Part shown: piece after piece, positions 5,401-56,147 of the stretch
How the letters are laid out: every line of letters begins with the position of its first letter
Position numbering within the stretch: the first letter of the stretch is position 1
DNA from: a virus
Lineage: Duplodnaviria > Caudoviricetes
Virus record (IMG/VR): IMGVR_UViG_3300044630_001263
Span: 1-60,652 of that record
Reading direction: 5' to 3' (one strand)
DNA: 60,652 bases
The notes under the pieces: generated by a model
Seen by the model: only the letters and a program-made list of their open reading frames with translations
Database searches by the model: none
Told to the model about the DNA's origin: nothing
Position numbers and translations under genes: made by a program

Positions 5401-8400
5401 GATTCCGCTACTGGTGTAATTAATATTGTTGGTGGTGTAACTAGTTTTAATACTAGAACTGGTGCTATTAGTTTGACTTCAGGTGATGTCACTGGTGCAT
5501 TAGGATTTACTCCTTATAATAGTACTAATCCTAGTGGGTACATCACAAGCGCTGCGTTGAGTCCTTACCTGACTACTGCATCTGCGGCTAGTACTTATGC
5601 TCCGTTAACAGGTACAGGTGCTTCCGGTACTTGGGGTATTTCAATTAGTGGTAGTGCTGCGCAACTTGGTGGAAAAATAGCGCAGGACGCTGTTGGAGCA
5701 AATACTATACCAACTAGAAATGGTGATGGTTACTCATATTTTAATTACATTAATAGCAACACTGGCAATAGTGAAAACGCTCCTGTCTCACAAGTAATTA
5801 CTACTCAGGGCAGTGACGGATTTTATCGTAAAGCAAGCATTGCTCATTTTACTAGTGCTGTGCAGTCGAATGCTTCTGGAACTTGGGGTATTTCGATCAG
5901 CGGAAACTCCGCAACTGTAACTAACGGGCTTTATAAAGTCGGCACAAACGCCATACCTGCGTATGTATCGTTAAATACAACTGCCGATAACTGGATGTGG
6001 CTGTGGCAAGCTAGCAGTGGTAATGATTGGTATCTTGGCCCAACTACTGCTAATTTTGGCCTCGGTGGAAGTCGTCTTGCTATTAGCAGCTCCGGAAGTT
6101 CACCCAATGCTGAGTTAAGTATTGAACGAGGAACCACGCGGTTGTTGGAAATCCTGCAAGCCAACCTTCAATACAAAGGTAATGTAGTTCTCCACGCAGG
6201 TAACTACAGTTCTTACTCGTTGCCTTTGAGTGGTGGTACTATTTCTGGTGCATTAACTATTAATGCTGGCAGCTCGTACCCTCTACAAGTAAACAGCACA
6301 CAAAGATACATTGCCCGTTTTTATAACACCTCTGTAGCTGGTGCTGGCTGGTGGCTTGCCAATGATGCAAACACGTTAGTGTTCCATGCAGACTCGTCTG
6401 GCGATAAAGCGTCACTAAACACAGATGGCGTATTTATTACAACAGGCTCATTCCGGGCACCGTTGTTTTATGATAACAACGACACTGCGTTCTACACAGA
6501 CCCCGCAAGTACTTCAAATGTAAGCTTATTGCATGCTCAAAGTTTAGTTGTCACAGGCACTACGACAGATCGTAATGTTGTGAGGGTAATACCCAAGGGG
6601 GCTTCGGCTTCTTATAACAACACAGTTACTGGCGCGTTCAAGATTCGTTTGCCTATCCGCGCCAACGACACGATGTGGCGCATGACTGTAAAAATCTACA
6701 ATTACAGCGAAAACAATATCTCAGAGTACAACCTTGGAAATTACTCGTACTCTGCCGGGTCTTACAACTCAGCAGCTTCGTTCAATGGTAGTAACAACGC
6801 TACCGCAAGAACTGTTCGATTCGGAAACGATGGCTCTTATGACTGTGTTTGGATTGGCGAAACCGACGGTACTTGGAGCCACCCCGTAATTGCCGTAACT
6901 GATTTTGTTGGCGGTTATGCCAATGCATCCGGTGGAAATTGGGATGATAACTGGGACATTTCTCTAGCTACGTCCTTCGGTACAGTTGCTGGCACTATTA
7001 CCCCAGCTAATAAGTTCTACGCTGTCACAGCTGATAGCTCTATGTATTCCCCAATCTACTACGACAGCAACAACACTGCGTATTACACAGATCCAACTAG
7101 CACATCTCGTTTAAATTCAATGCTTGTTGGCAATGGGGCGTTTGCAGACATTCGGATGACTGATGATGAATCTCCAAACGGTCAAAAGTATATTCATGCT
7201 AACGGCAACAATATTGGCTTTTTAAGTGGTGCTGGTAGTTGGATTTTTCGAGTTGATAACGGTGGGACAGCCATTGCAGAATCATCATTACGTGCACCAA
7301 TTTTCTACGACAGTAACGACACTACTTACTATTTAGACCCAAATTCCTCTACAGCTGCAATTCTTGCTGGCAGTATTGGTGTTGGTACATTGTCGCCTGT
7401 TAATCCTGCTTGGGGTACCGCTTCTAATACCAAACAAATAACACTTCATGGTTCAGGATATGGTGTATTGAATCTTCGTGGTGACAGTACAACATCAACT
7501 TGGTATTCAATGGGCGTGGGAGATGGTCGTTTTTATGCTGCATATGACAGTATTGCTGGAGTTCACAGACTTGTATTTTATGGGGCTAATATGGGTGTTA
7601 ATGCAGGAAGTTCACCTGCTTACAACCTTCATGTAGGAGGTACAGGTTACGCCACTGGCGATTTTCGTGCACCAATCTTTTATGACGGCGACAATACGGG
7701 ATTTTACACAGACCCTGCAAGTACTAGTCGTATGAGCAACATTAATTACGACAATTTGTATTTTGCAGGTGATACTACTTACGGGTTAATTGGTAGAAAT
7801 GGCTACTTAGACACAGTTAATGGTCGCGGCAGTGATCCACTTGAGTTGAATTATTATGATGGTGGCCCAGTAAAAATTGGTAGCGGTACAAATGGAAGCA
7901 AAGCATTATACGCTTCAGAGCTCTATTCAACAATTTTCTACGACAGTGCCGATACAGGCTACTATTTAAATCCAAACGGCAGTTCACTTTTGTATGGTCT
8001 TGTTTTGTCTGGGAATCAATATTTCCGTCCAAACACTTGGATTCAAATGGATGGTAACTATGGTATTTATTGGCCGAGTTCAACGGGTACCCCACATTGG
8101 AATCCGAACAGCGGTACTTACGGCCCAATGGAGTTGTCTGGTATAAGAAATAGTTATTCGGGTATTAGGCTTCCAAGCTCCAATAACACAACTATTGGTA
8201 TGTTTGATAGCAGTGGTAACGGTGGTTTGTACAATTATAGCTATTGGATTTACTACTGGCTTGTAGGAAACGCTTGTCTTGGTGTTCGAACATCTTCAAC
8301 AAGTGCTTCTTATGCAATGTATGTTGATGGTGGTATTTACTCTACGGGTAACGTGGTTGCCTATTCAGACGCTCGTAAGAAAAGAGAAATTGTAACTGTT

Positions 8401-22544: not shown

Positions 22545-25500
22545 ATGGATCTAAGACCATTATCTGAAATTCCAGATGACAAACTTCTTATAACAAATGA
22601 GAAAGGACAAGATGTTTCTGTAAAGCCTCATGATGCAGATACATACTATACGGATGCTGGTCTTGGAAAACGTATTGTAGGTTTTGATGCTGCAGAGGTC
22701 CCCAAAATAACTGAGACAGGGGGATTCTCTGCAGGATCTTCTTTGGGTTTAGCCCAGAGTGCTGCTACTAAACAAGTATTAAAAGACTACGGTTTTAATC
22801 GTGAAATTATTGTTGGTAAAGACGAATACAAGCGTGACTTAGTTAAGCTAGTTAATCCTCAAGGTGAAACAGCAGAAAACTTTTTGTTAAGAAATCGTAT
22901 TGTACAACCTACAAAGTATACATCCGACAAAGATATGATTGATAGATCATTTCAAATCTTTCAAGATGCAATGATTCAACATGAACAAAAAACTCCAGTT
23001 CAAAAAGCAAGAGAGTTAGTTGAAGCTACTTTATCTAGCGGTACTATGGTACCCAGATTACAAGCTAATACTGTAGAAGAGTTTCAAGACTATACTAAGG
23101 CTACAAGCAATAAAGGTTTAGCTGAACAAGAACAAATGATTAAAGATCTTGAGAAGAGAATACAATCTCCTAAGATCAACGAGTTACAAAAACAAGATTA
23201 TTTAAATCAACTAAATAAGCTAAAAGAAAACTATCAATACAACCTTAACTTACCTAAGAACATGTATGTAGATTCCTTAGAGGGATTCCGACAAAAAGGT
23301 GCTTATGGTACTATGGCAGAGTTTGGTAGGGCTTTAGACTTAGGTTGGATAGCAGTAGATAATAGCGCTGCAAACTTTCTTCAATGGTCAGGTGACTTAG
23401 TTAAGTCTAAACCATTAATGCAGTACGGTAAAGACTGGGAGTTTGATAATAAGAGAGCTAGACGTCTTGTAGACATTTCTGCTGGTGATAGAGATATTAC
23501 TGGTGGTACTGTTACCTCTCTTGATGATGTTGAAAAGGATTTTAGTAAGGTATTTAAATTCCTTGGTACCTCTGTATTACAGTATGGTCCTCAAATGGCG
23601 GTAATGATTGGCGGCTCTGTTGCTGGTGGTTTAGCAGGTGGTCCAGCAGGAGCATTTGTTGTACCTATGGCAATGGGTATTGCTGATGTGTATGGTGAAA
23701 TGCCTGACAATGAAAAAGATCCTTACATGGCGGCTGCTATTGGTAGCGCTGTTGGTCTTGTTGACCGTTTTGGTTTTGCTAAAGGCTCAATTAAAGGTTC
23801 AGACCTACTAACTAAAAAGGGTTTAGCTGAAGTATCTTCTAAGATAGCGGCATCTAAAGGCATCTCTGTTCCTGAAGCAACAAATCTTTTGCATAAAGAA
23901 ATGATTGGCATTACTAAAGATTATGCTTTAATTGCAAAGAGTGTTGCAGCAGATCAGTTAGCTAGCAAACAAAATTTATTAGACTTGATGCTACAGATAA
24001 ATAAGTATGCAGGTAAAGAAGCTTTAACAGAAGCTATTCAAGAATCAATTCAATATGCTGGTATTAGAGGGACAACCTCTTTAGACTTTGATTGGTCAGA
24101 GCTATACAAGCGTACTAAAGAAGCGGCTATTGTTGGTGGTATTTTAGGTGGTACATTTAGTGCTCCTGGAGCGATGATAGATAGAGCTAACTTTAATCAG
24201 CAACTTAATATGCTTGCTGGTATTGAAACAAAACCTTTAACTCGTAATACTGCTATGGAGCAGGAAGAAATTGCTCGCAACGGTACTAAACTTGATGATG
24301 TTCAACTTGCAAATAAATTAAGAAACTATAGCAAGTCAGGCGGTAAACCTGTTAATACATTATCAGATTTAATTATGCCCGGAACTACCCCTAATACTTT
24401 ATGGCAAGACTTTAATAGCTTGTTAACTAATGGTGGGTTGTTTAGCCAAACAAGAGATAACAATTTAGCACAATATACTCAATATGAAGGTGGTAGAGAG
24501 ATTGCTGGTTTGTTTGATGCTAACAGTGTTCGTGGTGTATACTCAGGTATGTCACCATTTAAACGTATACACTCTATTGCTAACAGCGTTATGTCTTTGT
24601 TTCCTAATAGCGCAGAGAAAAGAAAATTATTTAATACAGATAATAACAAAGACATTGGTGAAATACTTTTAGAATCTTATAACAATGGATTGCAACATCA
24701 AGGTGCTTTAGAATACAGAGCAAAATTAGATACAATGGGTCAGGCATTAGCAGATACTATTGATGGTCTTGGTAACAATACTGGTTGGTCTTCTACTGAG
24801 ATTAGACAACCTGATTTCTTTTTAAAGAATCAAATTGTAGATCCTAATTTGGTTAGAGCTAATGCCGATGAGTTTATTAAAACTATTGAACAGAATTACG
24901 TGTCTAAGGGTTTTCCTGGGGGTAAAGTTAATAGGACTTTCTTAGAAGACTTAGCTACTCGTATATCTGAAAACATGACTTATCGTGAAATGAAAGACTT
25001 AAAAGATCTTGGTATGCTTGATAGCCCTGTTTTAAATAAATTTAGGTCTAAAGACGTAGAGCATAATGCTACTCGTTTAGTTGAAATGGTTTCAAGATCC
25101 GCAGTTAAGAATACTATCTTTGGTTCTAATGGAGAAGTAGTAGCTAAAGGTATTGCTAAGATGCTGGATGCTAATCAAATTACAGAGCAAGAAGCTAGTC
25201 AACTTGCGATGAACGTTGATCAAATGATTAAATCTTTTGATGGTAATCTAAATCAACCACAGAATCCAGTAATTAAAGGTGCAACAGATAATCTTACATT
25301 TACTACAATGATGGTGTACATGGACACTTCTTTGTTTGCTAACTTAGCTGAAGTTGTTTACGGTTCTTTAGGTCTATCACCTAAACAAATGGTTAAATAC
25401 TTTGGTTTAGTAAGTAAAGAATTTGCTTCAGATGTTGTAGCTAAGTTTGCTCAAGCTGGTAACAAGATAACTGGTGGTAAGATACCATCATTAGAAGAAC

Positions 25501-26489
25501 GTGAAATGTCAAAGAACGTGTCTATGCTTCAGCATACAGGTCACTTTGGTAAGATGAACGATATTGCTTTTAATGTTGGTGCTAATATTAATACACAGGC
25601 TAAACGTAATCTAAGTAAGATTATGTTTAAATTTAACCTTGTTGAGTCAGCAACTAACGCAGCTCGTGCAGCTCGTGGTGCTATTGCTTCAGATGAGATT
25701 AATTATTTAACTAGTATTATTGCAGAGTCTCCCAATAACAATGATGTAACACGCTGGGCAAGAGATCGATTAAGTTATTACCGTATGGATCCAGATAAGA
25801 TGGTAGATATCTACAATCAATTAGGTCAAGTATCGGTAGAGACACTTAATAATTTATCTGAAGGCGATCCTTTATATCAAGACTTAGCTAACCAATTAAC
25901 TAATGGTATAACAAACTTTATTGACGAATTCTCTGCAAGACCTGAGCCAGGAAGTTCTGCTAAATTATTTGATGACCGTAGGTTTGATTTGTTTACTCAA
26001 TTCAAAAAGTTTACTTGGCATTTTACTGCAAACATTATTCCTCAGATGTGGAATATGTATATTAAACGCGGTGAAGTTAAATATTCTTATAGCACATTCT
26101 CATTGTTAATGTTATCATTTGCAATGGCTTATGCTGGTATGTATATGAAGTCAATGCTTCGTGGTGAAGAACCAGAAGATGATGAAGTAAAATTTAATAA
26201 AAGATTAAAGCAAGCCTTTGATTACTCTGTTGGTGGTGCTTATACTGATGTGTTAAACACAGTAACAGAAGCTACTGCTGAAAGACCGGACGGGTCTCTT
26301 AAAAATAGTCCATTCAAAACCTTTGTATCACAGTCCCCTTCAATAAACTTATTGTTTAATACAGGAAAAGATGTGTACAAGGTTGCTACCGAGGAGGAAG
26401 ATGCCAAGGCAAAAACCAACTTGATCCGTAGAATACCCGTGTTTGGAGAAATTCCAGCTGTGCGGGACATGTATGTAAAGGAAAAATAA
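22545..26489 (+). CDS. Large internal virion protein with N-terminal thermonuclease (SNase)-like domain
   Basis: DADT...RIVGFDAAE...DEYKRDL matches the SNase DGDT/RxxGxDAPE/DxYGRxL pattern; remainder helical with Gly-rich hydrophobic stretches. Confidence 0.65.
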   Translation: MDLRPLSEIPDDKLLITNEKGQDVSVKPHDADTYYTDAGLGKRIVGFDAAEVPKITETGGFSAGSSLGLAQSAATKQVLKDYGFNREIIVGKDEYKRDLVKLVNPQGETAENFLLRNRIVQPTKYTSDKDMIDRSFQIFQDAMIQHEQKTPVQKARELVEATLSSGTMVPRLQANTVEEFQDYTKATSNKGLAEQEQMIKDLEKRIQSPKINELQKQDYLNQLNKLKENYQYNLNLPKNMYVDSLEGFRQKGAYGTMAEFGRALDLGWIAVDNSAANFLQWSGDLVKSKPLMQYGKDWEFDNKRARRLVDISAGDRDITGGTVTSLDDVEKDFSKVFKFLGTSVLQYGPQMAVMIGGSVAGGLAGGPAGAFVVPMAMGIADVYGEMPDNEKDPYMAAAIGSAVGLVDRFGFAKGSIKGSDLLTKKGLAEVSSKIAASKGISVPEATNLLHKEMIGITKDYALIAKSVAADQLASKQNLLDLMLQINKYAGKEALTEAIQESIQYAGIRGTTSLDFDWSELYKRTKEAAIVGGILGGTFSAPGAMIDRANFNQQLNMLAGIETKPLTRNTAMEQEEIARNGTKLDDVQLANKLRNYSKSGGKPVNTLSDLIMPGTTPNTLWQDFNSLLTNGGLFSQTRDNNLAQYTQYEGGREIAGLFDANSVRGVYSGMSPFKRIHSIANSVMSLFPNSAEKRKLFNTDNNKDIGEILLESYNNGLQHQGALEYRAKLDTMGQALADTIDGLGNNTGWSSTEIRQPDFFLKNQIVDPNLVRANADEFIKTIEQNYVSKGFPGGKVNRTFLEDLATRISENMTYREMKDLKDLGMLDSPVLNKFRSKDVEHNATRLVEMVSRSAVKNTIFGSNGEVVAKGIAKMLDANQITEQEASQLAMNVDQMIKSFDGNLNQPQNPVIKGATDNLTFTTMMVYMDTSLFANLAEVVYGSLGLSPKQMVKYFGLVSKEFASDVVAKFAQAGNKITGGKIPSLEEREMSKNVSMLQHTGHFGKMNDIAFNVGANINTQAKRNLSKIMFKFNLVESATNAARAARGAIASDEINYLTSIIAESPNNNDVTRWARDRLSYYRMDPDKMVDIYNQLGQVSVETLNNLSEGDPLYQDLANQLTNGITNFIDEFSARPEPGSSAKLFDDRRFDLFTQFKKFTWHFTANIIPQMWNMYIKRGEVKYSYSTFSLLMLSFAMAYAGMYMKSMLRGEEPEDDEVKFNKRLKQAFDYSVGGAYTDVLNTVTEATAERPDGSLKNSPFKTFVSQSPSINLLFNTGKDVYKVATEEEDAKAKTNLIRRIPVFGEIPAVRDMYVKEK

Positions 26490-29400
26490 ATGTCTTTAAT
26501 GAATGTGCGACCTAGAACAGGTCCATTAAGTGGTGGTGAAGCAGAACCTGCTTTAGTTCCTGAGAGTGTCCAACGACAAATTGAAGTAAACCCCATACCA
26601 AGAAGTATGGAATTAGTTCAACCTGAAGGTACTCAAATACAGTATCAATCTGATATGTATCAAGTGCCTAGGTATTCAGTAGAAGAGGTACCTACAGGAA
26701 GTGACTTTGGTGCAGGAGCTACTTCTACTACTGTACCTATTGACTATGCTTCTGAAGTTCCTGTTGATATTGAAGAACAAGGTATTCGTTTGGCTGAGCC
26801 AACGAGTCTTCCTAACTTTAATACACCAGATGAAGCTTATGAAACAATTAACAAAGCGATTCAAGACTTAGGTCCAGTGTATTCTTCTTTTAAAGTTGAT
26901 ACCGAGAAAAGAAAAACTTGGAGTGGTAATGACGGTAATGAAGCTATTGCTTTATCTAAACATTCTAATGACTTTGCTGAAAGACTTTTTAATGGTGAAG
27001 GTATTTTTGGTAATGAAAACCTAAGTAATCTTTATCAAAATGATTTAGGTATTACTGAGGAAAACTCTGCTGCTTTAGGTGGTGGGCTTATGCTAGCTGC
27101 TACAGGTGCTTTGTCTAATGTAAAATCAAGAAAATATAAAGACTTTATTGAAGACAAAAAGACTGGTAGTATAGAACCTACTTACGAAGATATTATTGAA
27201 AATCCTTTTAACATTTCTAAAGGAATGTCTAATGAGGAACGTAAAGAAGTTTATTCAGAAGCAAATCAAGCTATCAGGTCTGATCCTAATAGTCAACCTG
27301 TTATGCAGTCATTTGTAACTGATATCCAAGATCGTATTGGTAAAAACTTTTCACGACCAGACACTCCCGGTGGATCAGCTACTCCAAGAAAAGTTAGTAG
27401 AGAAATTGCTGCAGCAGAAGCTTACAGTTTATACGACAAAGGCTATATTGATATTGGTAAAGATAAGAATGGGGTTTATTACCCATTGTTGACTGCTAAA
27501 GGTGAAGACATGCTTGCAGACACCAAACATGCTGCTGCTCTTTATGATGTAGAATTACGTCATATGAATGTTAATGAGCCACTTATTCGTTCTCAATCAA
27601 CTCCTCCTGCTAGTTTTAGATTTGCAGGTAAGCAACAGATGTTTGCTCCTAACTTAAAATTCAAAGACAATTTAGGTATGGATGTTATTGATGCGGCTAT
27701 TGCTATTCAAGCAGCAGTAGGTTTTAAAGTTAACCCTATTAACCTTAGTTTGTTAGAGCAAATGGCTAGCAGTGCTTACTCAGTTGGTCCAAACTTAAGT
27801 CCTAATTTATCTACAGCAGTATTTAGTTCCTCAGGTAATTTAATTAACGCTGGTAATAATATTAGTAGTGGTAATGCTGGCTTTGTTAACCAAACCTTTA
27901 CTGTTCCTTTTGCTTATTCGGATAGCCCTTACTCTAAAACAATTGCAGACCTTTCATTAGGTAAAGTATCTGAGAAAGTCAAAGAGCTTGTTGCATCAGG
28001 TATGCCCCAAGGGAAGATAGCAGAGACTGTTGGTGATATTAATACTCGTAAGCTACAGCAAGTTAATAAACATTTAAGTGATTACTTAACTAGTAATTTA
28101 TCAAAGGGTATTCGATTTAATATGATGCAGCGTTCGCCTAGCACTAATCGAATGTTCCCATTGGCTACAGATATTAACACAACTAACCATAGCGGGACCA
28201 TTAGACCCGGTGTTGACTTCGGTTTAAAGCTTACATCTACTATTCGTGGATCATTACCCGATACATTTAGCCGAGTAAAGGCTATTGCAAGCAAAGTCTA
28301 TGATACTAAAAATAAATCAGGTATTGCTGTTGGTGAGTCTATCCATCGTGCTTTATGGGCATTACCAAAAGAAGATCGAGTGTTGTTAGATGCTATGTAT
28401 CAGATCAGTAAGTTTGCACAAGACTTTGGATTTATTAGCTTTAGAAACTTTAGACCAACACCTAAAGATTATATTGAAGCTTTAACCCCAGACGTCCTTC
28501 AAAAGATGGCGGCATTTGGTACTAAGTTTAAATCATGGTCTCAAGGTAACTTACCTAAAACAAATGAACAAGCTGACCTTCCTCCAGCATTTAACAATGA
28601 ATTAAAAGCATTCTTTGAAAAGAAAGAATGGGGACCCCGAATCCGTAATGCTATTATGGCTTCTGATATTGTTAATGCTGCTAAGGCTGGTGGAGGTGTT
28701 GTTACATTAGACGCACCTATTGAGACTGATGCTTCTCAATCTAATGCTTTTATTATTTCCATGCTAATTGGTGATTTAAAAGTTGCTAATATTCTTGGTG
28801 GTTATTTTGGTGGTGATCAAAATTATGCTGATGTAAGAAAAGAATATAAAGACTTACGTAATCTTGTATCATCAACAGTTAACACAGATATTGAAGATAC
28901 TTTAAGAGGTACAGACGAGGCAGGTAAGAAAGAAGCATTCCAAAATTTAATGGATGAAGCTAAGCTAATGTACGGTAGCGAGTTTGATAAGATTTATGCT
29001 CGAGGTATTGTTGTTGCTGGTCTTTACGGTAAACACCCTGAATATATGTTTACTGAAGTTGAGACTATGCTTAGTAAACTAGCAGGTCTTAGCGACAAGT
29101 TAGATAACATTGAAGCAATGTACCCTAATCGTAAAGAATTTCTTGAAGACTTGTGTTCTATATTTAGCACATCAATGAGAAATCACTTAAAGAATTTACA
29201 AGGTTGGCAACAAGTTGCTTCGTCTATTGCAAGTCTTAAGTCTGCATTTAATGGTTCTTCTAGAATTAAATCATTTGGAAATACATATATTGATTTAGGT
29301 TCAAGCTATGCTACAATGGTGGAAGATGAATCTAATACCATTAAAAATATAATGGGTCTTCCTGATGAAGTAAAGAACTTATCAGGTAGAGCATATGATA

Positions 29401-30338
29401 TTGCAGCCCCAGGAAGTGTAGGCAAGTCTCTTGCAGACCTTCGTGAGATGAAAGATCGACTCAAAGAACTTAATGTTAATATCGAAGACTTTGAAGAGCA
29501 ATTGTTTATGTCAGCTTTTGCTGGGGACAAAGCTCGTAAGGCTTTACCTGTTGTGTTGATTCAATCAGGTGACGCATTCCAAATGGCTTCTGCTATTGTG
29601 TATGCTAATCAAGATAACCCAGATAAAGAACCTTTGAATGTCTATAGTATTCATGATGCTACAGGTACAGCACCAGGATCTACATTGTTGATGTATAATG
29701 CTTACAATAATATTTCACCATATATTATGGCTAAGAATAGTAAGAATGTGTTACAAGATCTTGAACAATCTATGGTTGATGATTTCAAAAATGCAATTAC
29801 TGAAGTTAATAAGTCTGGTAAAGCAAACATAGGTACACTGGGTAAGTATAAAGCTATGGGTGGATACTTCGATAGAATGTATAACTCCTTGTTTATGAGA
29901 TCTAGAGATGAACTTAGAGGTCGAGTTGATTTAGATCCAGACTATACCAAGATATCTAAAGAATATAACAAAGCAGTTATTGATTTAGCAATTTCATTTG
30001 GATGGTTACCTCCAGTTAATAGGAATGAGAAAAAGAAACCTAATAACATTGTTACACCACAACAATTTGCTTTGTTGTCTAGATTAGCTATAACACATGC
30101 TGGCTGGAATGAAAATAATCAAAGTACATTCCCTTCATTAGATAAATTAGTTGAACAACATAACCAAAAAGTTTCTGATTTTAATAAAGCTAATAGGAAA
30201 AATGCTGCAGTTAAACCTAAAAGATATTTTAAAATGGATTCAAGAAACCGTTATAAGTTTGAAAAGTTTATTGCTAACAATGAAACATTTGTTAAAGAAA
30301 TGGCTTCTAATCAAAATCAAATTGTAAACGCTAAATAA
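26490..30338 (+). CDS. Putative virion-encapsidated single-subunit RNA polymerase (N4 vRNAP-like, compact)
   Basis: Ordered motifs STNRMFP, PIETDASQSN (motif A), KIYARGIVVAGLYG (motif B), LPVVLIQSGDA and YSIHDATGT (motif C); last gene of the ejection-protein block. Confidence 0.8.
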   Translation: MSLMNVRPRTGPLSGGEAEPALVPESVQRQIEVNPIPRSMELVQPEGTQIQYQSDMYQVPRYSVEEVPTGSDFGAGATSTTVPIDYASEVPVDIEEQGIRLAEPTSLPNFNTPDEAYETINKAIQDLGPVYSSFKVDTEKRKTWSGNDGNEAIALSKHSNDFAERLFNGEGIFGNENLSNLYQNDLGITEENSAALGGGLMLAATGALSNVKSRKYKDFIEDKKTGSIEPTYEDIIENPFNISKGMSNEERKEVYSEANQAIRSDPNSQPVMQSFVTDIQDRIGKNFSRPDTPGGSATPRKVSREIAAAEAYSLYDKGYIDIGKDKNGVYYPLLTAKGEDMLADTKHAAALYDVELRHMNVNEPLIRSQSTPPASFRFAGKQQMFAPNLKFKDNLGMDVIDAAIAIQAAVGFKVNPINLSLLEQMASSAYSVGPNLSPNLSTAVFSSSGNLINAGNNISSGNAGFVNQTFTVPFAYSDSPYSKTIADLSLGKVSEKVKELVASGMPQGKIAETVGDINTRKLQQVNKHLSDYLTSNLSKGIRFNMMQRSPSTNRMFPLATDINTTNHSGTIRPGVDFGLKLTSTIRGSLPDTFSRVKAIASKVYDTKNKSGIAVGESIHRALWALPKEDRVLLDAMYQISKFAQDFGFISFRNFRPTPKDYIEALTPDVLQKMAAFGTKFKSWSQGNLPKTNEQADLPPAFNNELKAFFEKKEWGPRIRNAIMASDIVNAAKAGGGVVTLDAPIETDASQSNAFIISMLIGDLKVANILGGYFGGDQNYADVRKEYKDLRNLVSSTVNTDIEDTLRGTDEAGKKEAFQNLMDEAKLMYGSEFDKIYARGIVVAGLYGKHPEYMFTEVETMLSKLAGLSDKLDNIEAMYPNRKEFLEDLCSIFSTSMRNHLKNLQGWQQVASSIASLKSAFNGSSRIKSFGNTYIDLGSSYATMVEDESNTIKNIMGLPDEVKNLSGRAYDIAAPGSVGKSLADLREMKDRLKELNVNIEDFEEQLFMSAFAGDKARKALPVVLIQSGDAFQMASAIVYANQDNPDKEPLNVYSIHDATGTAPGSTLLMYNAYNNISPYIMAKNSKNVLQDLEQSMVDDFKNAITEVNKSGKANIGTLGKYKAMGGYFDRMYNSLFMRSRDELRGRVDLDPDYTKISKEYNKAVIDLAISFGWLPPVNRNEKKKPNNIVTPQQFALLSRLAITHAGWNENNQSTFPSLDKLVEQHNQKVSDFNKANRKNAAVKPKRYFKMDSRNRYKFEKFIANNETFVKEMASNQNQIVNAK

Positions 30339-34152: not shown

Positions 34153-34170
34153 GTATTAGGTACCGTCTAG
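34153..34170 (-). promoter_or_regulatory. Putative phage RNAP promoter, copy 3
   Basis: CTAGACGGTACCTAATAC on the minus strand, between the RNAP and nrdJ genes. Confidence 0.7.
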
Positions 34171-36368
34171 CAGAAAAAGTATTTAGATTCCATAACCTCA
34201 CTGAGTACTAGGTTACCCAGTTCAGGTTGGCTGAAGGTGAATGTATCCTTATTATCCATAAGGGTATCTTGAATGATGTTAAAGAAGTTTTCTACATCAT
34301 ACTGTGCGATGAAAGTCATCTTAGTTACTTCCTGAAGGAAATCAACTTCATCCGCATGTGTACTGAAGCTATCATGGACTGCTCCAAAAGAACCGTTAAA
34401 GCTAACGATAGTGTTTGCCATGTGAGCAGCATCATATGAGTGAACAACGTTAGGGCTGATACCAGAAGCAAAGGAGCGTCTACAAGGAACACGTTCCCCA
34501 GTCTCCTTGTTAAGTACGTCAACCTTAATAACGTGCATGACGCGTCCGTCTTTATTTCCTTGGATACCTTTAATAGTTCCTCTTTGTTTCCGTTCATGCT
34601 GGAGGTAAGCCTTGTATACCACAGGGAACCCTGATGGGGTTGTCCATGTAAGTTGGTTTTTTCCTGAATTGAGTTCATGTTCAGCTATCTTCTGTAAATA
34701 CTTGGTTGTCTTAAGTGGTCCTGCACAGACCGTGTTAATGGCTTTGATTAGGTTACCTGCTAAGATATCACACTGTTCTTCAGTGATGTTATACTTAACA
34801 GTGAAACCTTCTACGTGGCAGTCGTCATACATATTCTTTGCGATACGTAACTTACCTGCACTGTATGCACGAGTCATTGAGCCTCGTTTAGCAATGCCTT
34901 TACGGATATGTTTCATAGGCATATCCTTAGCTTCGAAGTACTCAGGCATAATACTAATGAGTTCTTTAGCTACAGCTACATAGAAGTCTTTCTGGATAGG
35001 TGTAGGAACAAGTGACACCAGTGTACCAGCTTGTTTATCCTTAGACATAGCCGCTAAGTGTTGCCACCCGTTATTAGAACCGTCAATAGGTATAGGTAGA
35101 CCAGACATAAAGTCTTTCTTCTCCATTGATGCTCTCTTGTATCCTAACAGTTCATTACAGCAAGCTAAGAAGCTATAAGCTTTCTCTGCATCCTGATGAA
35201 TAGTCTTCATACGAGCAGTCTCATAGATAAACCCTATGTTGTTATCTACCCATGCAACCCTGTCTTCCAGTGTCATCTTATCTACAGAGATAGTGTCTAA
35301 GCCTTCACCCTCAAGGTAAGTCTTGTAGTCTGTCTGGAAGTATTTAGGTATCTCATTGATATTAAAAGACTTATTATAGCAAGCTGCTGCATGGACTTTG
35401 ATCCAGAACAAACCACGTTCAGTAACCTTCTTCTTATTAGCAAACAAGAATAAGCTACGAGCTAAGTCACTACCTTGGAACTCTAGGAATGATTCTGCAT
35501 AGTACACTCTACCACGGTAGTCACATGAAACTTCCTGATAAAATGTTCTTTCATTAATCAATTCTGCTTTCTTAAGTACCTGCATATACTCAAAGTATTT
35601 ACTGAGCATACGCTGTAGCTTAGGATCTTTCTTACCAAGGAACTTAGTACCGTCTGTATGGAACAGTTTCTTAGGTAACTCTAAGTTCTCATGGTGTATG
35701 TTGTACTCTCTGACAACACCATCTTCATCAACTAACTCAAGGATTTCCTTAGGAGTTTGTGCTTGCATAGCTGATAATACAGGTGTATTAAGCTTCCAAG
35801 GTTGTTGACGTAATGTTTCAAGAGACCGTACAAAGGTTTTATTAAGGTTCTCATGGAACAACTTAGAGTTAGTCCAGCCTTTAATAAAGGGTTCTTTAGT
35901 TAATGGACTATAGAGTCCAGCAATAGGTAACAAAGGTTCAAACGAAGTACCTATTAAGGTAGGCTTGATATCATCTGCTTGGTTAACAATGCGCACCATG
36001 TATGGGGCTTTGTAACCAGCATACTCTCTGAAGATATCAATCAGTCCGTCTTGGAGGAAAGTTTCAAGCAGTAAGTCTCCAAGAGATAAAGTTGTTTTGA
36101 TGTCTGTCTCATCAGCTCCGATAGCTCTTGCAATTCTTTTTCCGATAAGGTCAGATGCGAAAGTGAGTTTAACAGAGGCAGAATGCGTTGCATTTTTATT
36201 TCGGATACAGTAACGAAGTAATGTATCCCACGACTCGTTAATAAAGCGTTCAAGTTCGTATTCCCATGTTGGATAGTGTGCTAGAAGGCGAGCACCCTCA
36301 TTGTAAATCTTATCTGAGTTGATAACAACCTTCGATACACGTTCAGTAAGATAGTTTAATGGATTCAT
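34167..36368 (-). CDS. T7-family single-subunit DNA-directed RNA polymerase (short N terminus)
   Basis: DYRGRVY, QGSDLAR, DGSNNGWQH (A), RKGIAKRGSMTRAYS (B), PNVVHSYDA, VHDSF (C) and C-terminal SKYFFC. Confidence 0.95.
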   Translation of the reverse strand: MNPLNYLTERVSKVVINSDKIYNEGARLLAHYPTWEYELERFINESWDTLLRYCIRNKNATHSASVKLTFASDLIGKRIARAIGADETDIKTTLSLGDLLLETFLQDGLIDIFREYAGYKAPYMVRIVNQADDIKPTLIGTSFEPLLPIAGLYSPLTKEPFIKGWTNSKLFHENLNKTFVRSLETLRQQPWKLNTPVLSAMQAQTPKEILELVDEDGVVREYNIHHENLELPKKLFHTDGTKFLGKKDPKLQRMLSKYFEYMQVLKKAELINERTFYQEVSCDYRGRVYYAESFLEFQGSDLARSLFLFANKKKVTERGLFWIKVHAAACYNKSFNINEIPKYFQTDYKTYLEGEGLDTISVDKMTLEDRVAWVDNNIGFIYETARMKTIHQDAEKAYSFLACCNELLGYKRASMEKKDFMSGLPIPIDGSNNGWQHLAAMSKDKQAGTLVSLVPTPIQKDFYVAVAKELISIMPEYFEAKDMPMKHIRKGIAKRGSMTRAYSAGKLRIAKNMYDDCHVEGFTVKYNITEEQCDILAGNLIKAINTVCAGPLKTTKYLQKIAEHELNSGKNQLTWTTPSGFPVVYKAYLQHERKQRGTIKGIQGNKDGRVMHVIKVDVLNKETGERVPCRRSFASGISPNVVHSYDAAHMANTIVSFNGSFGAVHDSFSTHADEVDFLQEVTKMTFIAQYDVENFFNIIQDTLMDNKDTFTFSQPELGNLVLSEVMESKYFFC

Positions 36369-41617: not shown

Positions 41618-41831
41618 GTAAGACCTTTACGTTAGGTGAGCCAAGCTCTTGAAGTTCTTTAGCCATCTCCATGACCATCTCCAAGAAATTATCTACTTGC
41701 TCGTTAAGTCCTTGGATAATTGTATGGAGGTGCCAGTTGTATGCACCTAAAGCTAGTACCGTGAACACCAGTATTGCTGTTGTTTCAGTCATTATTGTAT
41801 AGTCCTGTGTTGATAAGCAACATTGGGTCAA
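41592..41831 (-). CDS. Small membrane-anchored protein
   Basis: Hydrophobic N-terminal helix; true start probably the internal MTETT. Confidence 0.55.
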   Translation of the reverse strand: MTQCCLSTQDYTIMTETTAILVFTVLALGAYNWHLHTIIQGLNEQVDNFLEMVMEMAKELQELGSPNVKVLHDKEKEGL

Positions 41832-42246
41832 TGAATGCTTCGTGAAGTTGTGTATTGTTTACAATAACACCGTGACCCTTTAAGAACTCAAGTCCTCTAG
41901 AGCATTTATAATTATCTCTAAAAACCAATCGATGAATCCCGACAGCATAGATAAGCTTAGCGCAATCAATACAAGGGGAAAGAGTGCTATACAGAGTAGC
42001 ACCCATAGTAGACTGGTTAGAACGGGAAACCTTGGCAATCGCTTGAGCTTCTGCATGGAGAACCTCGTGTACTTGGGTATCATTGTTTGTTCCTATTGGC
42101 GTACCATTGTATGAGAATGAAATGATGTTACCATCTTTTACAATGATAGCACCTACCTTACGGTCCTCTGCGTATGACTGCTGAGAGATCAGGTTAGCAA
42201 TACGCATATAGAATAAATCCCAATCACTTTGTGATTTCAAGTTCAA
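41785..42246 (-). CDS. dCMP deaminase
   Basis: KVGAII, YNG-P-G, HAE and SPCIDCAK zinc-deaminase motifs. Confidence 0.88.
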   Translation of the reverse strand: MNLKSQSDWDLFYMRIANLISQQSYAEDRKVGAIIVKDGNIISFSYNGTPIGTNNDTQVHEVLHAEAQAIAKVSRSNQSTMGATLYSTLSPCIDCAKLIYAVGIHRLVFRDNYKCSRGLEFLKGHGVIVNNTQLHEAFIDPMLLINTGLYNND

Positions 42247-50388: not shown

Positions 50389-50434
50389 AAGAGAATGTCT
50401 TTAGGTATACTACCTATTGATATTCTCTTTTTTA
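50389..50434 (+). terminator. Stem-loop terminator after putative terS
   Basis: AAGAGAATGTC-TT-TAGGTA-TAC-TACCTA-TT-GATATTCTCTT then a T run. Confidence 0.7.
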
Positions 50435-50497
50435 TTACTCTTTTTATAATATACTTTTAATAAATATATTATATAATACTATCCAACGGACAGTATC

Positions 50498-50731: not shown

Positions 50732-50888
50732 TTATCTATCCTCACTTTCTTTACCCACAATAGTTTACCTTTGAGAAAAGCCTTTTGGATACCAGTGGTA
50801 TCGTCAAAGACAATTGATATTTCAGACCGTACTCGAGATTGGATTCTCTTGATAAGGTCTGTATAGATTTCTGCGGCTGAGTGCATAT

Positions 50889-51131
50889 TTAAATCTCTAT
50901 TTCTTTACCTATTTTATTTATTAACTCTACAATTTCATCATAAAAGTCATGACCCTCGTAGGTTAAAGCTTTACCTATTACTTCAGCATTCATGAAGATA
51001 GCTTCTAATAGGTGGTGTTCTTCAACATTTTTAATAGTGATCCTTAAAGTGTATGGTTGGAATACTATAGGATAATCTGTGCATTTGTAAACTTCCATAT
51101 TAGTATTGATCCTCTTCAACAAGTGCGTCAT
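50889..51131 (-). CDS. Early hypothetical protein
   Basis: Shares FQP(Y/F)-L-I---- with the adjacent 51100..51321; true start probably MEVY. Confidence 0.55.
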   Translation of the reverse strand: MTHLLKRINTNMEVYKCTDYPIVFQPYTLRITIKNVEEHHLLEAIFMNAEVIGKALTYEGHDFYDEIVELINKIGKEIEI

Positions 51132-52794: not shown

Positions 52795-53256
52795 TCATAC
52801 ATTTGCGTTCCTTGCCTGTTGAAATTGTTCTAGCTCTATGTACGCTATATCCCTATAGTACTCAGCAGCATCCTTTGCTTCCTGACTTGACCCGTTCCTG
52901 TTGGGAACAAAACACCATGCATGACGGTTCCACCACCACACAAGAGCTTTAGAAAAGGCAGTATTACCTGACCAATGAGGACAACCCTTAGACACCCAGA
53001 ACTTAAGGTGTCGCCAAGTAGACCGAGGCATTTCACAACCACACAAACCCATCTCTGTTAGCATGAGTTCAAAGTCACCAGCGAACGATGCATCACCTTG
53101 CAGGTAATAAGCAACATTCCTTGATGCCCTAGGATGCGTACGTAAGTACGAAGCAGGAGCGATAGCTCCACAAGGATGCCCAATGAGGACATCATTCTCT
53201 TTAGACCTGATCCTACGGTTGATAAGATCAGACGTCAAGCTGTAACGTTTAGCCAT
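52795..53256 (-). CDS. Early hypothetical protein
   Basis: 153 aa, AAGGAG RBS. Confidence 0.65.
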   Translation of the reverse strand: MAKRYSLTSDLINRRIRSKENDVLIGHPCGAIAPASYLRTHPRASRNVAYYLQGDASFAGDFELMLTEMGLCGCEMPRSTWRHLKFWVSKGCPHWSGNTAFSKALVWWWNRHAWCFVPNRNGSSQEAKDAAEYYRDIAYIELEQFQQARNANV

Positions 53257-53258
53257 GT

Positions 53259-53441
53259 TTACTCTCCTTCTTTGATTTCGATTAACAGAATAGCAATCTG
53301 TACACCAGCACAGATACTAGCAACGATCAGACCGATCACATGGAACCAGCCATACATTACCTCATACTGTATCTTATCGACACAGAACACCATCAGTTGC
53401 GACCACAACAGAATGTAAACAACGTGCATTAACTTAGTCAT
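53259..53441 (-). CDS. Early two-TM membrane protein
   Basis: AAGGAG RBS; two hydrophobic helices. Confidence 0.6.
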   Translation of the reverse strand: MTKLMHVVYILLWSQLMVFCVDKIQYEVMYGWFHVIGLIVASICAGVQIAILLIEIKEGE

Positions 53442-53539
53442 ATTAATCTCCTTGAGCTATGACAACCTGTAACCGACAGGCACGGACGAGCAAGACGCTC
53501 TCGGAAGACCCCGACAAAGGAGCCAACCGAGAAAGCCCT

Positions 53540-54178
53540 TCAAAGAGACACAGCACAGAAGTAACCAGACGAACCAGCACGAGCACGACACACAAAGCCA
53601 GAACGACCAGGAGCAGCCCACAAGTCAACAGACACACCAGAGTCAGCAGCAACAGCAACCGCAGACACCAAAGAAGAGAAGGCAGCAGGAGACAACCCAG
53701 AGGACAGACACAAGAAAGGCAAAGAGAAGCCAGCAACGTCCACCGACAACACACCACCAGACACCAACCAACCACGAACAACCACACCAGAGGCAGCAGG
53801 AACAAAGCCCGAAGAAGGAACACCAAGGCAAGAGGCAGGAACACCAGCACCAGAAGCCAAAGGACACACAGGAGCAACAGCCGCCAAAGCACGACCAGCA
53901 CGAGCCAACACAGCCAAACGAGCAGGAGAGACACCAGCAGCACGAGCACGAGACCACACACCACGAGCACGAGCCAACAAGTCAGCAACAGCCGCAGGAG
54001 AAACAGCAGGAGAGGCACGACCAGAAGCCGCACACAAACCAAGCAACACCACAGACAAACGGCAAGACCGAACCAAAGAAGAAACCGAAGAAGACAGAGC
54101 CGAACGAACAGCACCAGAAGCAACAGGAGACACAGCACCGAGGACGGGCAAAGAAGCAGCAGAGAAAGAGAAGGACAT
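53540..54178 (-). CDS. Adenine-free early gene, 212 aa, unknown function
   Basis: Only 7 A in 639 nt (ATG, 4 x GAC, TAC, TGA). Third positions are mostly T. A-free SD-like GGGG lies 7 nt upstream of the ATG. Confidence 0.8.
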   Translation of the reverse strand: MSFSFSAASLPVLGAVSPVASGAVRSALSSSVSSLVRSCRLSVVLLGLCAASGRASPAVSPAAVADLLARARGVWSRARAAGVSPARLAVLARAGRALAAVAPVCPLASGAGVPASCLGVPSSGFVPAASGVVVRGWLVSGGVLSVDVAGFSLPFLCLSSGLSPAAFSSLVSAVAVAADSGVSVDLWAAPGRSGFVCRARAGSSGYFCAVSL

Positions 54179-54331
54179 AACAAACCCCAAAGAGCGCAGG
54201 AAGGAAAGCCGACAAGCACCGCGCCAAGCGCAAGCCGACAGGGAAGGAAGGACGGGACGCCCACCGAGCAACCGAGCACCCCGAGAACAGGGGGGGCAGG
54301 GAAAACCAGGAGGGGCGAACCCAACCAACAC
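53541..54331. other. Thymine-free plus-strand tract (6 T in 791 nt)
   Basis: T occurs only at 53562, 53625, 53643, 53739, 53982 and 54178. Confidence 0.97.
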
Positions 54332-54461
54332 TTGATTCTTTTAAACACACACAAAGACTTCTACCCACGACATTCTCCAAAAACAATTCTCCAAAGGCTT
54401 CCCCATAGTAGAGCAGGGGGTACCCGAAAAAAGTATTCGAATTATTACATTTATGAATATA

Positions 54462-54479
54462 CTAGTCGGTACATAATAG
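54462..54479 (+). promoter_or_regulatory. Putative phage RNAP promoter, copy 6
   Basis: CTAGTCGGTACATAATAG upstream of the terminase large subunit. Confidence 0.7.
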
Positions 54480-54506
54480 AGAAACATTTTTTATACAAGT
54501 GGAAAT

Positions 54507-56147
54507 ATGAAACAACAAAACAATTCTGAGAAGCTAGAGGCTCTGAGGGAATTAAAGAAGCGAGAGAAATTAGCTTCATACAAGAATAACTTTGAGTTAT
54601 TCGCCAAAGAACAAATTAAAATCTTACCCAAGGACTCCTCCAAGGGATTTCAATTTTTTGAATTCAATGAAGCTCAAAAGATTGTGAATGAAGCTCTTGA
54701 GAAACAACTCAAGGAGACGGGGAGAGTCAGAGCTATTATTCTTAAAGCTCGACAGATGGGTTTAAGTACATACACGACAGGAAGGGTATTCTGGAAGAGT
54801 TACTTTAATGCGTATAATAAGTCAGTAGTTATGGCTCATGATGCGGCTACTAGTGATGCGCTATTTAGTATGTCCAGGAATACTATTTACAATATGTCTG
54901 ATACCTTCAGACCAGTATTGAAGAAGTCAAATGCAAAAGAGATTATGTTTGAGCATAATGATTCGGGGTACAGGCTGTATACAGCTGGTGCTCCTGAGGC
55001 GGGTAGGGGAACAACTCCTACGATTGCTCACTTGTCTGAAGTTGCATTTTGGGGTCATGATGAAAAGATCCTTGCAGGACTATTCCAAGGTATCTCCCAA
55101 GCGGATGGTACAGAGGTTATTCTTGAGAGTACAGCGAATGGGGTAGGTAACTCATTTCACAGGTTATGGCAGGGAGCTGTAAAGGGTGAGAATGATTATG
55201 TAGCTATCTTTGTTCCGTGGTACTTGATGACAGAGTATCGGAGGAAGGCTCCTGAGGGTTTTGAAAGAACAACAGATGAGGAAGTATTAGTCACTAGGTA
55301 TAGCTTAGATGATGATCAGTTATATTGGAGAAGGTTAAAGATTGCGGAGGGTGGTGAGGATAAGTTCCGTCAGGAGTATCCCGCGACACCTGAGGAAGCA
55401 TTTATTGTTTCTGGCTCTAATGTGTTTAACATTGAGAAGTTAAGTAAGCTTGTTCCTCAACCTATATTAGCCAAGAGAGAGTTTAACTTTGAATCCTCTA
55501 TGATGGAGGACTTAAAGGATGGCTCGATTGAGATATTTAAGTATCCTACTTTTGAAGATGCCTTTGCTATCGGTGCTGACGTTGCTTTGGGTGTTGGCAA
55601 GGATTATTCTACAGCCGTGGTTATCAATGCCAAGAGGGAAGTGTGCGCAGTTTATCGTAGTAATACGATTGATCCTAGTCAGTTTGGTGATCTATTATTT
55701 TACCTAGGAAGGTACTACAATAATGCTTTGTTAGCTGTAGAGTCTAACTCTATGGGTATAGCAACATTAAACAGGTTAACTCAAATGGGTTATGTGAACA
55801 TGTACTATCAGACTAAGATGGCGAATGTATCCAAGGAAGAGGGTAGTAGGATTGGCTGGAGAACTACTTCAGCGTCTAAACCTGCTATTATTGGGTTCTT
55901 AAAGAATGCCATTGAACAGGAAGATATCTGGATACCCTCCAGGATTATCATCGGTGAACTTATGAACTACGTAGCAGACGACTCTGGAAAGACAAACGCT
56001 ATTGTCGGTCAGAATGATGATACTGTTATTGCCCTTGCTATTGCGCTTGAAGTAATCAGAACTCATGGTGACAGACTAACAAATACAACAGTACCTTTCT
56101 CACAGAAGATAGGTAACTACAGACCAGTAGAAACTACTTGGATATGA
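54507..56147 (+). CDS. terL: Terminase large subunit
   Basis: ILKARQMGLST Walker A, HLSEVAFW Walker B, ESTANG coupling motif, IGADVA and NDDTVIALAIA nuclease aspartates. Confidence 0.95.
   Translation: MKQQNNSEKLEALRELKKREKLASYKNNFELFAKEQIKILPKDSSKGFQFFEFNEAQKIVNEALEKQLKETGRVRAIILKARQMGLSTYTTGRVFWKSYFNAYNKSVVMAHDAATSDALFSMSRNTIYNMSDTFRPVLKKSNAKEIMFEHNDSGYRLYTAGAPEAGRGTTPTIAHLSEVAFWGHDEKILAGLFQGISQADGTEVILESTANGVGNSFHRLWQGAVKGENDYVAIFVPWYLMTEYRRKAPEGFERTTDEEVLVTRYSLDDDQLYWRRLKIAEGGEDKFRQEYPATPEEAFIVSGSNVFNIEKLSKLVPQPILAKREFNFESSMMEDLKDGSIEIFKYPTFEDAFAIGADVALGVGKDYSTAVVINAKREVCAVYRSNTIDPSQFGDLLFYLGRYYNNALLAVESNSMGIATLNRLTQMGYVNMYYQTKMANVSKEEGSRIGWRTTSASKPAIIGFLKNAIEQEDIWIPSRIIIGELMNYVADDSGKTNAIVGQNDDTVIALAIALEVIRTHGDRLTNTTVPFSQKIGNYRPVETTWI

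Follow-up and report, generated by a model that had tools for sequence, protein, structure and literature searches.

The window analysed here is the whole 60,652-nucleotide (nt) IMG/VR virus record IMGVR_UViG_3300044630_001263 (Caudoviricetes), and this text concerns a stretch within it, 53541-54331, whose minus strand is nearly free of adenine (A). The stretch holds a protein-coding gene of 212 amino acids (aa) at 53540-54178 on the minus strand, preceded by a 5' leader of 153 nt (54179-54331). Upstream it is bordered by a conserved motif, a candidate early promoter or start signal, and downstream by an A-poor 3' spacer and two further genes in which A is partly depleted. An earlier note, made from the sequence alone, had singled out this stretch as an adenine-free gene at the head of the early gene arm, and had proposed that it is the first DNA to be ejected and acts as a stealth cassette or in genome entry. 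The observations of that note are largely borne out below, while its view of what the unit is, and of why it exists, has had to be revised.

Base composition of the tract

The plus strand of 53541-54331 (791 nt) contains 334 A, 246 C, 205 G and only six thymines (T), located at 53562, 53625, 53643, 53739, 53982 and 54178, and the minus strand is accordingly nearly A-free. The five longest T-free runs in the window (242 nt at 53740-53981, followed by runs of 195, 153, 95 and 62 nt) all fall within this tract. Outside the tract and its 3' spacer the longest such run measures 29 nt, the spacer itself having one of 37 nt (53502-53538). When the window was subjected to 200 mononucleotide shuffles, the longest T-free run had a mean of 28.9 nt and a maximum of 42 nt, against the 242 nt observed. 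Both the six T and the 242-nt run reported in the earlier note are confirmed. Log-odds segmentation places the maximal T-poor segment at 53471-54331 (861 nt, 10 T). As a separate observation on composition, the longest G-free runs of the plus strand in the window lie at 50420-50487 (68 nt) and 50884-50945 (62 nt), and are C-free on the early sense strand.

Four sequencing runs were compared with the window in the form of contigs, from which read starts, read ends and expression levels are not derivable. An 811-nt contig from a DNA run (X1, possibly the source sample itself) corresponds to 53510-54320 with 0 differences, and the tract is real, not an assembly artefact. Contigs from an RNA-library run (X8), a type of library that can contain DNA, span 53338-54190 with 2-4 differences each and give a weak hint that the tract is expressed. 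Over 54214-54516 there was no RNA-library contig, and the runs X12 and X22 yielded next to nothing on the tract, which counts neither for nor against expression.

The first gene and its product

Within the tract all six reading frames are open, because no A or T is available for stop codons, and an open reading frame (ORF) on its own is therefore no proof of a gene. That 53540-54178 (minus strand; product P0002) is a translated gene of 212 aa is established by the phase coherence of its residual A's, by its relatives and by its predicted fold. Its 639 nt include 7 A, distributed over the first, second and third codon positions as 1, 5 and 1, and these correspond to the ATG start, four GAC codons, one TAC codon and the TGA stop. 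The five internal A's are thus all found at codon position 2 (5/5), and the claim that the remaining A's are obligatory holds. In every relative examined, the residual A's of the coding part likewise keep to one phase, in GAC, TAC, GAG and GAT contexts, and a ribosome site stands at the proper spacing from the start, either as GGAGG combined with GTG or TTG, or as GGGG combined with ATG. The window belongs to the latter kind, with GGGG 7 nt ahead of the ATG (54178).

The product is made of 43 Ala, 39 Ser, 32 Val, 24 Leu, 22 Gly, 15 Arg, 4 Asp, 1 Tyr and 1 Met among its residues, and lacks K, N, Q, E, H, I and T as well as any internal M. It is basic (15 Arg and 4 Asp, with 0 Glu and 0 Lys) and is therefore not a DNA mimic of the Ocr/ArdA type. 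Seventeen database proteins match it at E <= 1e-3, the window's own 263-aa ORF included, and all of them are A-poor; its C-terminal 118 aa are 56% identical to a gene of the relative L048 (E 2e-15). No Pfam or PHROG family matched the product, and the protein Atlas placed it in unnamed clusters only (0.82-0.83). An AlphaFold2 model built with 17 family members (mean predicted local distance difference test, pLDDT, 74.3; predicted template modelling score 0.48) shows a helical domain at residues 18-101 and an alpha/beta domain at 118-212. Foldseek's top matches for the latter, OB-type B subunits, reach E 0.03, with none at <= 1e-3, and the protein is accordingly modelled as a helical N-domain followed by a putative OB-like C-domain.

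Start motif, leader and positional gradient

The first A-free base of the minus strand adjoins a conserved motif that runs from TCTTTGTGTGTG to AAAAGAATCA (54333-54357, minus strand) and occurs once in the window at <=3 mismatches. In 57 of the 70 relatives scanned by regular expression it stands directly ahead of the A-free stretch, a variant of it is present in the upstream regions of most of the others, and variants also exist in a GC-richer clade of the same phage group. A sigma-70 scan called no promoter at this motif; from its position and conservation, it may be an early promoter read by the host polymerase.

The leader that follows (54179-54331, minus strand) has zero A up to the GGGG and the ATG, as the earlier note had described. 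Insertions and deletions among the leaders of relatives are not multiples of 3 (L003 compared with L004 shows single-base phase shifts), and the leader is therefore non-coding. No Rfam covariance model matched at E <= 1, and RNAalifold run on 30 leaders predicted 0 pairs. Separate folds in this region gave z-scores of -1.6 and -1.8, and no conserved RNA structure was found. A leader that codes for nothing is thus subject to the same exclusion, which places the constraint at the level of the nucleic acid, as the earlier note also held; preferences of the protein are overridden.

The strict part of the tract ends at the A-poor 3' spacer (53471-53539, minus strand), whose minimum free energy fold contains a hairpin with a conserved CGAGAGC loop; in relatives, the CGAGAGC block recurs 3' of the first gene or right after the leader. 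Beyond the spacer, a zone of partial A-depletion (52832-53470, minus strand) reaches into the next two genes, which encode a 60-aa hydrophobic protein (53259-53441) and a protein of 153 aa (52795-53256). Counted in 500-nt steps from the start of the zone, A makes up 0.4% of the coding strand, then 8.6% (53332-53831), 23.8% (52832-53331) and 30.8%, and thereafter about 33% over the rest of the 24-kb arm. The A's lost in the zone are replaced by T, G and C roughly in proportion, and C is enriched. A comparable course is seen in the relatives: in every one with a motif found by regular expression, nt 51-100 after the motif (the second 50-nt bin) contain 0-2 A, the A-free state persists for about 100 to about 850 nt, and the count then climbs to about 15 A per 50-nt bin, in several cases by a slow ramp (for instance in L073, L074, L040 and L045).

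The A-free state is thus tied to position, that is, to the distance from the operon start, and not to the identity of a gene. This modifies the claim that a gene with a special property lies here, since the unit is a zone that begins at the operon start, crosses gene borders, covers some genes by half and contains differing genes in different relatives. Sense-strand A is purged from the leader, from complete genes and from the front half of others alike, depending on what the zone happens to contain; in genes it persists only where it is required by the protein sequence, the start codon, the ribosome site or the stop codon. As judged from third codon positions, the leader and the choice of amino acids, the constraint applies to each single base irrespective of context, is specific to the sense strand, has a fixed start and decays with distance. 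A cause acting purely at the protein level is therefore excluded, as is avoidance of stops or of particular words only. In sum, the stretch is very probably a real early gene with its leader, situated in a position-dependent adenine-exclusion zone that starts at a conserved motif heading the early arm of a podophage with a T7-type RNA polymerase, is strict over 0.1-0.9 kb depending on the lineage, and gives way to normal composition by about 1.5 kb.

Relatives and interchangeable first genes

Relatives were collected from IMG/VR with the terminase as anchor, 80 being fetched of the 205 found. In 67 of the 68 relatives with more than 600 nt upstream, the top T-poor segment ends within 400 nt of the terminase start (<=400 nt), L051 being the exception, and the length of the tract varies from 74 to 905 nt (median 264 nt). 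The closest named phage is roseophage CRP-7, whose terminase is 60.6% identical and whose record closes with the tract (T-free runs of 224, 168 and 104 nt). The earlier note had suggested a search of relatives for A-free ORFs upstream of the terminase, and an A-free tract is present there in nearly all cases and in CRP-7 as well. The CRP-7 gene gp72 is annotated on the T-free strand (141-836 of locus L001; 57271-57966 of the record). The minus-sense frame of the same locus (L001 113-499) has an ATG, phase-coherent A's and the N-terminal motif of the family described below, and gp72 has probably been called on the wrong strand. Base-free tracts are absent from two more distant terminase relatives, MW202692 (whole record) and Vibrio phage 1.232.O (first 50,000 of 56,736 bases), in which the longest runs are <=72 nt.

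The relatives differ in which gene occupies the zone. In three with short tracts (L033, L052 and L077), an A-free leader of only 100-150 nt is followed by the CGAGAGC-loop hairpin and then directly by the 60-aa hydrophobic protein that is the window's second gene, and the first gene is therefore an inserted cassette. Several such cassettes were distinguished. Family A is recognised by its CSDGRVRVCR and AAFGYSADSWF blocks, family B includes the window gene and that of L048, family C includes the genes of L011 and L075, and further cassettes encode small hydrophobic proteins or others. Families A and B have a common N-terminal motif of 27 residues (E 7e-8). Profile comparison of the two families aligned only 21 residues of the N-terminal motif, at a probability of 59%, and lends no support to a common origin of their C-domains. 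Within family C, the two genes are homologous over their full length (36% identity, E 5e-12) and are A-poor in their first halves only. Additionally, contigs of the DNA run X1 join 53539 to 54193 and 53539 to 54303, skipping the gene across 653 or 763 nt, which suggests that strains with other first-gene cassettes co-occur in one sample. A search for related loci with the protein P0013 yielded no confirmed locus. In the GC-richer clade, the A-poor zone of L088 reaches about 1.3 kb (4591-5900).

An OB-like protein family in two alphabets

Family A allows the same protein to be compared within and beyond the zone. A profile built on 15 of its genes and searched among 1.84 billion proteins retrieved 45 cluster representatives at E <= 1e-3, of which 21 at <= 1e-10. 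The share of residues that need an A in their codon varies among the 45 representatives from 5 to 50%, with 16 of them at <=15% and 16 short ones at >=35%. Where ordinary members have Ile, the A-poor members mostly have Val (54%); Lys is replaced by Arg, Ala, Gly or Ser, and Asp is retained in 40% of cases. The loci retrieved for one ordinary member belong to the GC-richer clade of the same phage group and present a terminase, a portal, T7 gp0.7-like kinases, the same motif and an A-free leader of 103 nt.

The two forms occupy different distances from the start. In the clade of the window the family-A gene is found 200-570 nt after the start, and of the 15 loci listed 13 have 3-5% A and 8-15% A-requiring residues, and third codon positions in those 13 genes hold 0-1 A, the single one being that of the stop; the genes of L037 and L044 have about 9% A and 18-20% A-requiring residues. 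Members of the GC-richer clade carry the gene farther out, at 860-1500 nt, with an A content of 18-21% and with 35-44% A-requiring residues, a contrast that is confounded with clade. The domain is modelled with a pLDDT of 94-97. Against OB folds, Foldseek gave a best E of 5.7e-3, with none at <= 1e-3, and VIA-align gave a best Z of 8.1 (root-mean-square deviation 3.2, 92 residues aligned) to a toxin B subunit, with SSB and PriB at Z 5-6; the modelled family-A domain thus weakly resembles OB folds. The ordinary-composition homologues belong to no Pfam or PHROG family. One member, that of L049 (2219-2698, minus strand), carries 42 extra residues of ordinary composition past the usual C-terminus, as if its stop had been lost.

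The phage and its genome

The record is 98% complete, and related sequence was found in lake and freshwater runs. Its genes form two arms that diverge at 54.3-54.5 kb and converge near 30.35 kb, and the 212-aa gene heads the minus arm, near terL, as had been stated. This early arm encodes a T7-type RNA polymerase (PF00940, E 8e-56, 34167-36368), also present in all four near-complete relatives (4/4), and located 18-20 kb downstream of the tract on a template with normal T. It also encodes DNA_pol_A, a Toprim+DnaB primase-helicase, a 5'-3' exonuclease, a class II ribonucleotide reductase, a gp2.5-like SSB and a dCMP deaminase (41785-42246, minus strand; PHROG 174, E 3e-45). Neither ThyA (PF00303) nor ThyX (PF02511) was matched in the phage, and the deaminase without them raises the question of the source of dTMP or of the nature of its T. 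A reverse transcriptase (PF00078) had 0 matches in the record, with a control positive in 3 of 14 genomes and with no search for a template/variable repeat pair.

The late arm begins with the large terminase gene (54507-56147, plus strand), the anchor by which relatives were found, and which after CRP-7 is nearest to T4-type phages. The portal gene also lies at its start, and the arm carries tail fibres and three large virion proteins. The 1282-aa virion protein at 26490-30338 had no PHROG, PDB-sequence or Pfam match, so that no polymerase domain is recognised by sequence, and that at 22545-26489 had two weak structural PHROG matches only (E ~1e-4), with no Pfam match and no nuclease domain. 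A/T palindromes abound in the 175 nt that separate the tract from terL, which contain GGTACC, ACTAGT and TTCGAA. A second conserved motif, at 54463-54485 on the plus strand and thus just ahead of terL, occurs once in the window and is conserved in the intergenic regions of relatives; it may serve as the start signal of the late arm. Between the two motifs lies a TTGGAGAAT-like direct repeat (54371-54393, minus strand in the window), whose unit number and spelling vary among relatives (up to about 5 units in L081), and such repeats could be iterons, operators or packaging signals.

Restriction has left traces in this genome. In the window outside 53471-54331, GGCC occurs 8 times against 48 expected and CCGG 20 times against 55 expected; GAGCTC, GCATGC, ATGCAT and GTCGAC are also depleted there, and GCGC, TCGA and TTAA occur as often as expected. 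In the tracts of 12 representatives, the ratios for GC-only palindromes are 0.28 (GGCC), 0.25 (CCGG) and 0.30 (CGCG), whereas the non-palindromic GCCG and CGGC stand at 1.04 and 0.80. With these palindromes depleted in the tract as elsewhere and the controls not depleted, restriction is taken to be a live pressure on the phage. The depletion of T-containing hexamer palindromes indicates, in turn, that the DNA is probably not blanket-modified at T.

Origin of the adenine exclusion

The explanation that we favour, at a probability of roughly 0.35, is that a message without A at its 5' end escapes an adenine-requiring attack on RNA in the host. The 5' part of the first early message would have to stay intact in a cell in which something attacks the adenines of RNA, and the agent could be an adenine-requiring endoribonuclease of a toxin-antitoxin or abortive-infection system, the RNA degradosome or an adenine-modifying enzyme. 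A leader free of ribosomes and the 5'-proximal part of the coding region would be the most exposed. A hazard biased towards the 5' end is ranked first because it accounts for the near-universal A-free leader, for the anchoring at the start and for the fading into coding sequence. It is also in its favour that the purge of the sense strand sets in immediately behind the motif, both in the window and in its relatives. Every A seems costly, to judge by the A-free third positions and by the trade-off between ribosome site and start.

Several points weigh against this protection of the message. We know of no adenine-specific RNA hazard; the site preference of RNase E leans on U more than on A, and the RNA of the tract is 41% U, while toxin RNases are normally inactive at the moment of infection. 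The genes of family C are purged by half, and protection of half a message needs the assumption of a strong 5' bias of the hazard. The motif was missed by the sigma-70 scan. Within the GC-richer clade, three near-identical relatives (L089-L091, from 5252 onward) keep the motif and have no A-free leader, which together with L051, the relative without the tract, shows that the trait is dispensable. Finally, the relatives are phylogenetically linked, and the counts given above therefore overstate their independence.

Of the other explanations, the one closest to the stealth cassette of the earlier note places the benefit in the DNA, and we regard it as unlikely. If the tract were the first DNA exposed in the cell, comparable to T7 gene 0.3, its A-free strand would deprive it of every target that needs adenine on both strands, among them every Type I site, any palindrome containing A/T and Type III sites in inverted pairs, so that the start of the early arm would be protected up to the time when early proteins come into play. 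As described in the relevant passages of PMC3874165, Type I enzymes methylate one adenine per half-site, on opposite strands, for which reason an A-free strand cannot carry a Type I target, and gene 0.3 of T7 enters first and is expressed during a halt in DNA entry. The restriction pressure documented above (GGCC, CCGG and several hexamers) fits such a benefit, as do the depletion of those palindromes that are still possible in the tract but not of the non-palindromic controls, a gradient that would follow entry order, the variable first-gene cassettes, as anti-defence genes often vary, and the T7 gp0.7-like kinases in the early arm of a relative. However, the depletion of GC palindromes is genome-wide and not specific to the tract, GGTACC, ACTAGT and TTCGAA lie in the 175 nt just upstream, relatives in which normal DNA follows an A-free leader of 100-150 nt would gain no protection, and the proteins are basic and hence no DNA mimics. 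The premise of first entry, on which the earlier note relied, also fails to find support: nothing found places a genome end at the tract, and two relatives' records that are classed as having direct terminal repeats are opened at unlike points of the map, as would happen if circular assemblies had been cut arbitrarily, and are silent on termini. The terminase is nearest T4-type phages after CRP-7, and T4-type phages package by headful without fixed ends; moreover, the orientation of the late arm does not suit an entry of the entire genome driven by transcription. A function in genome entry, also raised in that note, can only be conjectured. Alternatively, the zone might be the footprint of a mutation process making strand- and adenine-specific errors from the operon start with limited reach, for example when an early transcript or primer is copied back into DNA, so that undefended A's are erased. 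Such a process would readily account for a purge that sets in at the motif, weakens with distance, reaches differently far in different lineages, ignores gene borders and stops midway through some genes; the replacement of lost A's by T, G and C about in proportion recalls diversity-generating retroelements, whose adenine mutagenesis converts A to any base, and the pattern of one A among ribosome site and start would represent a mutation-selection balance. It is nevertheless distinctly unlikely in view of the 0 matches to PF00078 in a 98%-complete record; we know of no other adenine-specific mutator, and simple deamination would give A-to-G changes only and a depletion of C, which is enriched here.

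A further set of explanations concerns the act of transcription, in that the host polymerase would read the operon head despite thymines that are modified, replaced by uracil or damaged, or despite scarce ATP. A per-base, context-free effect that starts at the presumed transcript start would fit a T-less template or an ATP-free transcript, and a dCMP deaminase is present while ThyA and ThyX were not matched. We give this idea little credence, since a half-purged gene or a leader alone is no help in finishing a transcript, the polymerase gene lies 18-20 kb downstream on a template with normal T, and the phage was recovered in many metagenomes. T-containing 6-bp palindromes are depleted genome-wide, which suggests DNA that is cuttable and not blanket-modified, and ATP is normally the most abundant nucleoside triphosphate, which counts against the version based on its scarcity. 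Avoidance of ultraviolet dimers is unsupported, as CC steps in the template are not avoided (ratio 0.89). Selection on the proteins themselves, whose products would have to avoid Lys, Asn, Asp, Glu, Gln, His and Tyr (for instance where tRNAs are cut by anticodon nucleases, or under lysine tagging), would agree with products that lack K, N, Q, E, H, I and T, and known anticodon nucleases do hit tRNAs that read NAN codons. It is very improbable when A is missing to the same extent from the non-coding leader, when third codon positions have lost theirs as well and when the purge disregards gene borders. That the tract is an assembly artefact, a non-coding spacer or a product of chance is hardly credible. 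Six frames open from composition alone and a product outside Pfam and PHROG families might invite this view, but the 811-nt DNA contig with 0 differences, the tract in 67 of 68 relatives, the five internal A's all at codon position 2 with the same coherence in every relative examined, and a ribosome site and start conserved at the right spacing speak against it, as do pLDDT values of 94-97 for family A and 74 for the window protein. Family A, which occupies the same slot, even has homologues of normal composition, whereas the window's own family has A-poor ones only.

Comparison with known systems

The best-known counterpart is the leading end of T7 with gene 0.3 (Ocr), which resembles the present locus in that the early arm opens with a small gene, presumably read by the host polymerase, and in belonging to a phage with a T7-type RNA polymerase, DNA polymerase A, a primase-helicase and a gp2.5-like SSB. 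The differences are considerable: the left end of T7 is not base-depleted, Ocr is an acidic DNA mimic whereas the window product is basic and OB-like in its model, and any protection here would be written into the DNA or RNA itself. T7-like podophages also have all genes on one strand, fixed ends and direct terminal repeats, in contrast to the two divergent arms found here. Similarity of the intergenic region to the T7 left end was looked for and rejected, as local alignment scores of 19 and 20 equalled those of shuffles (mean 18-20, maximum 26-29).

Avoidance of restriction sites and palindromes is known in phages, and the EcoP15I sites of T7 are biased to one orientation. The exclusion of a base from one strand is akin to it as a passive defence through composition, and would abolish whole classes of sites. 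Known cases, however, remove words genome-wide, whereas here one base is removed from one strand along a positional gradient and at the cost of ten amino acids. Another parallel is offered by the ACA-less, MazF-resistant messages used in engineered single-protein production, which make a message immune to an endoribonuclease by removing its target; those messages are engineered, concern one triplet and are changed synonymously, unlike this natural loss of every A, leader included, graded by distance. Diversity-generating retroelements share the specificity for adenine and the conversion of A to any base, but they need a reverse transcriptase, for which there was no match here, together with a template/variable repeat pair, and the outcome in the zone is loss of A, not diversification. 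In the literature searched, no description of adenine-free phage genes was found. The passages considered around CRP-7 in the paper on that phage (PMC6918029) do not mention the tract. We found no described kind of element that the zone fits.

Implications

For annotation, the tract is a warning, being free of stops in six frames and, in CRP-7, carrying a gene call (gp72) on the opposite strand. The analysis brings out the positional gradient, the cassette architecture, the trade-off between ribosome site and start, and a protein family that exists in ordinary and recoded form, and the latter constitutes a natural experiment in which folded proteins are built from a reduced alphabet. The system is testable, with CRP-7 and its host FZCC0042 in culture, a sharp start of the zone, a measurable gradient, variants with long, short or no tract, and one family in both forms. 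Natural contrasts for the cause are likewise available in the zone of about 1.3 kb in L088, its absence from L089-L091 despite an intact motif, and its absence from L051.

In a wider sense, it is possible, although we hold it only tentatively, that incoming mobile DNA of several unrelated kinds has a first-read kilobase without adenine because bacteria widely possess an adenine-directed activity against fresh foreign transcripts or templates. This phage family would then be the clearest form, with a zone tied to the promoter and weakening with distance that confines ordinary proteins to ten kinds of amino acid. For the family itself, the exclusion of a single base across marine and freshwater members, with folded proteins recoded without ten amino acids, would, if true, mean that a strong process acts on every A, and a process of this kind on early phage RNA or DNA would lie outside the current catalogue of defence or takeover mechanisms.

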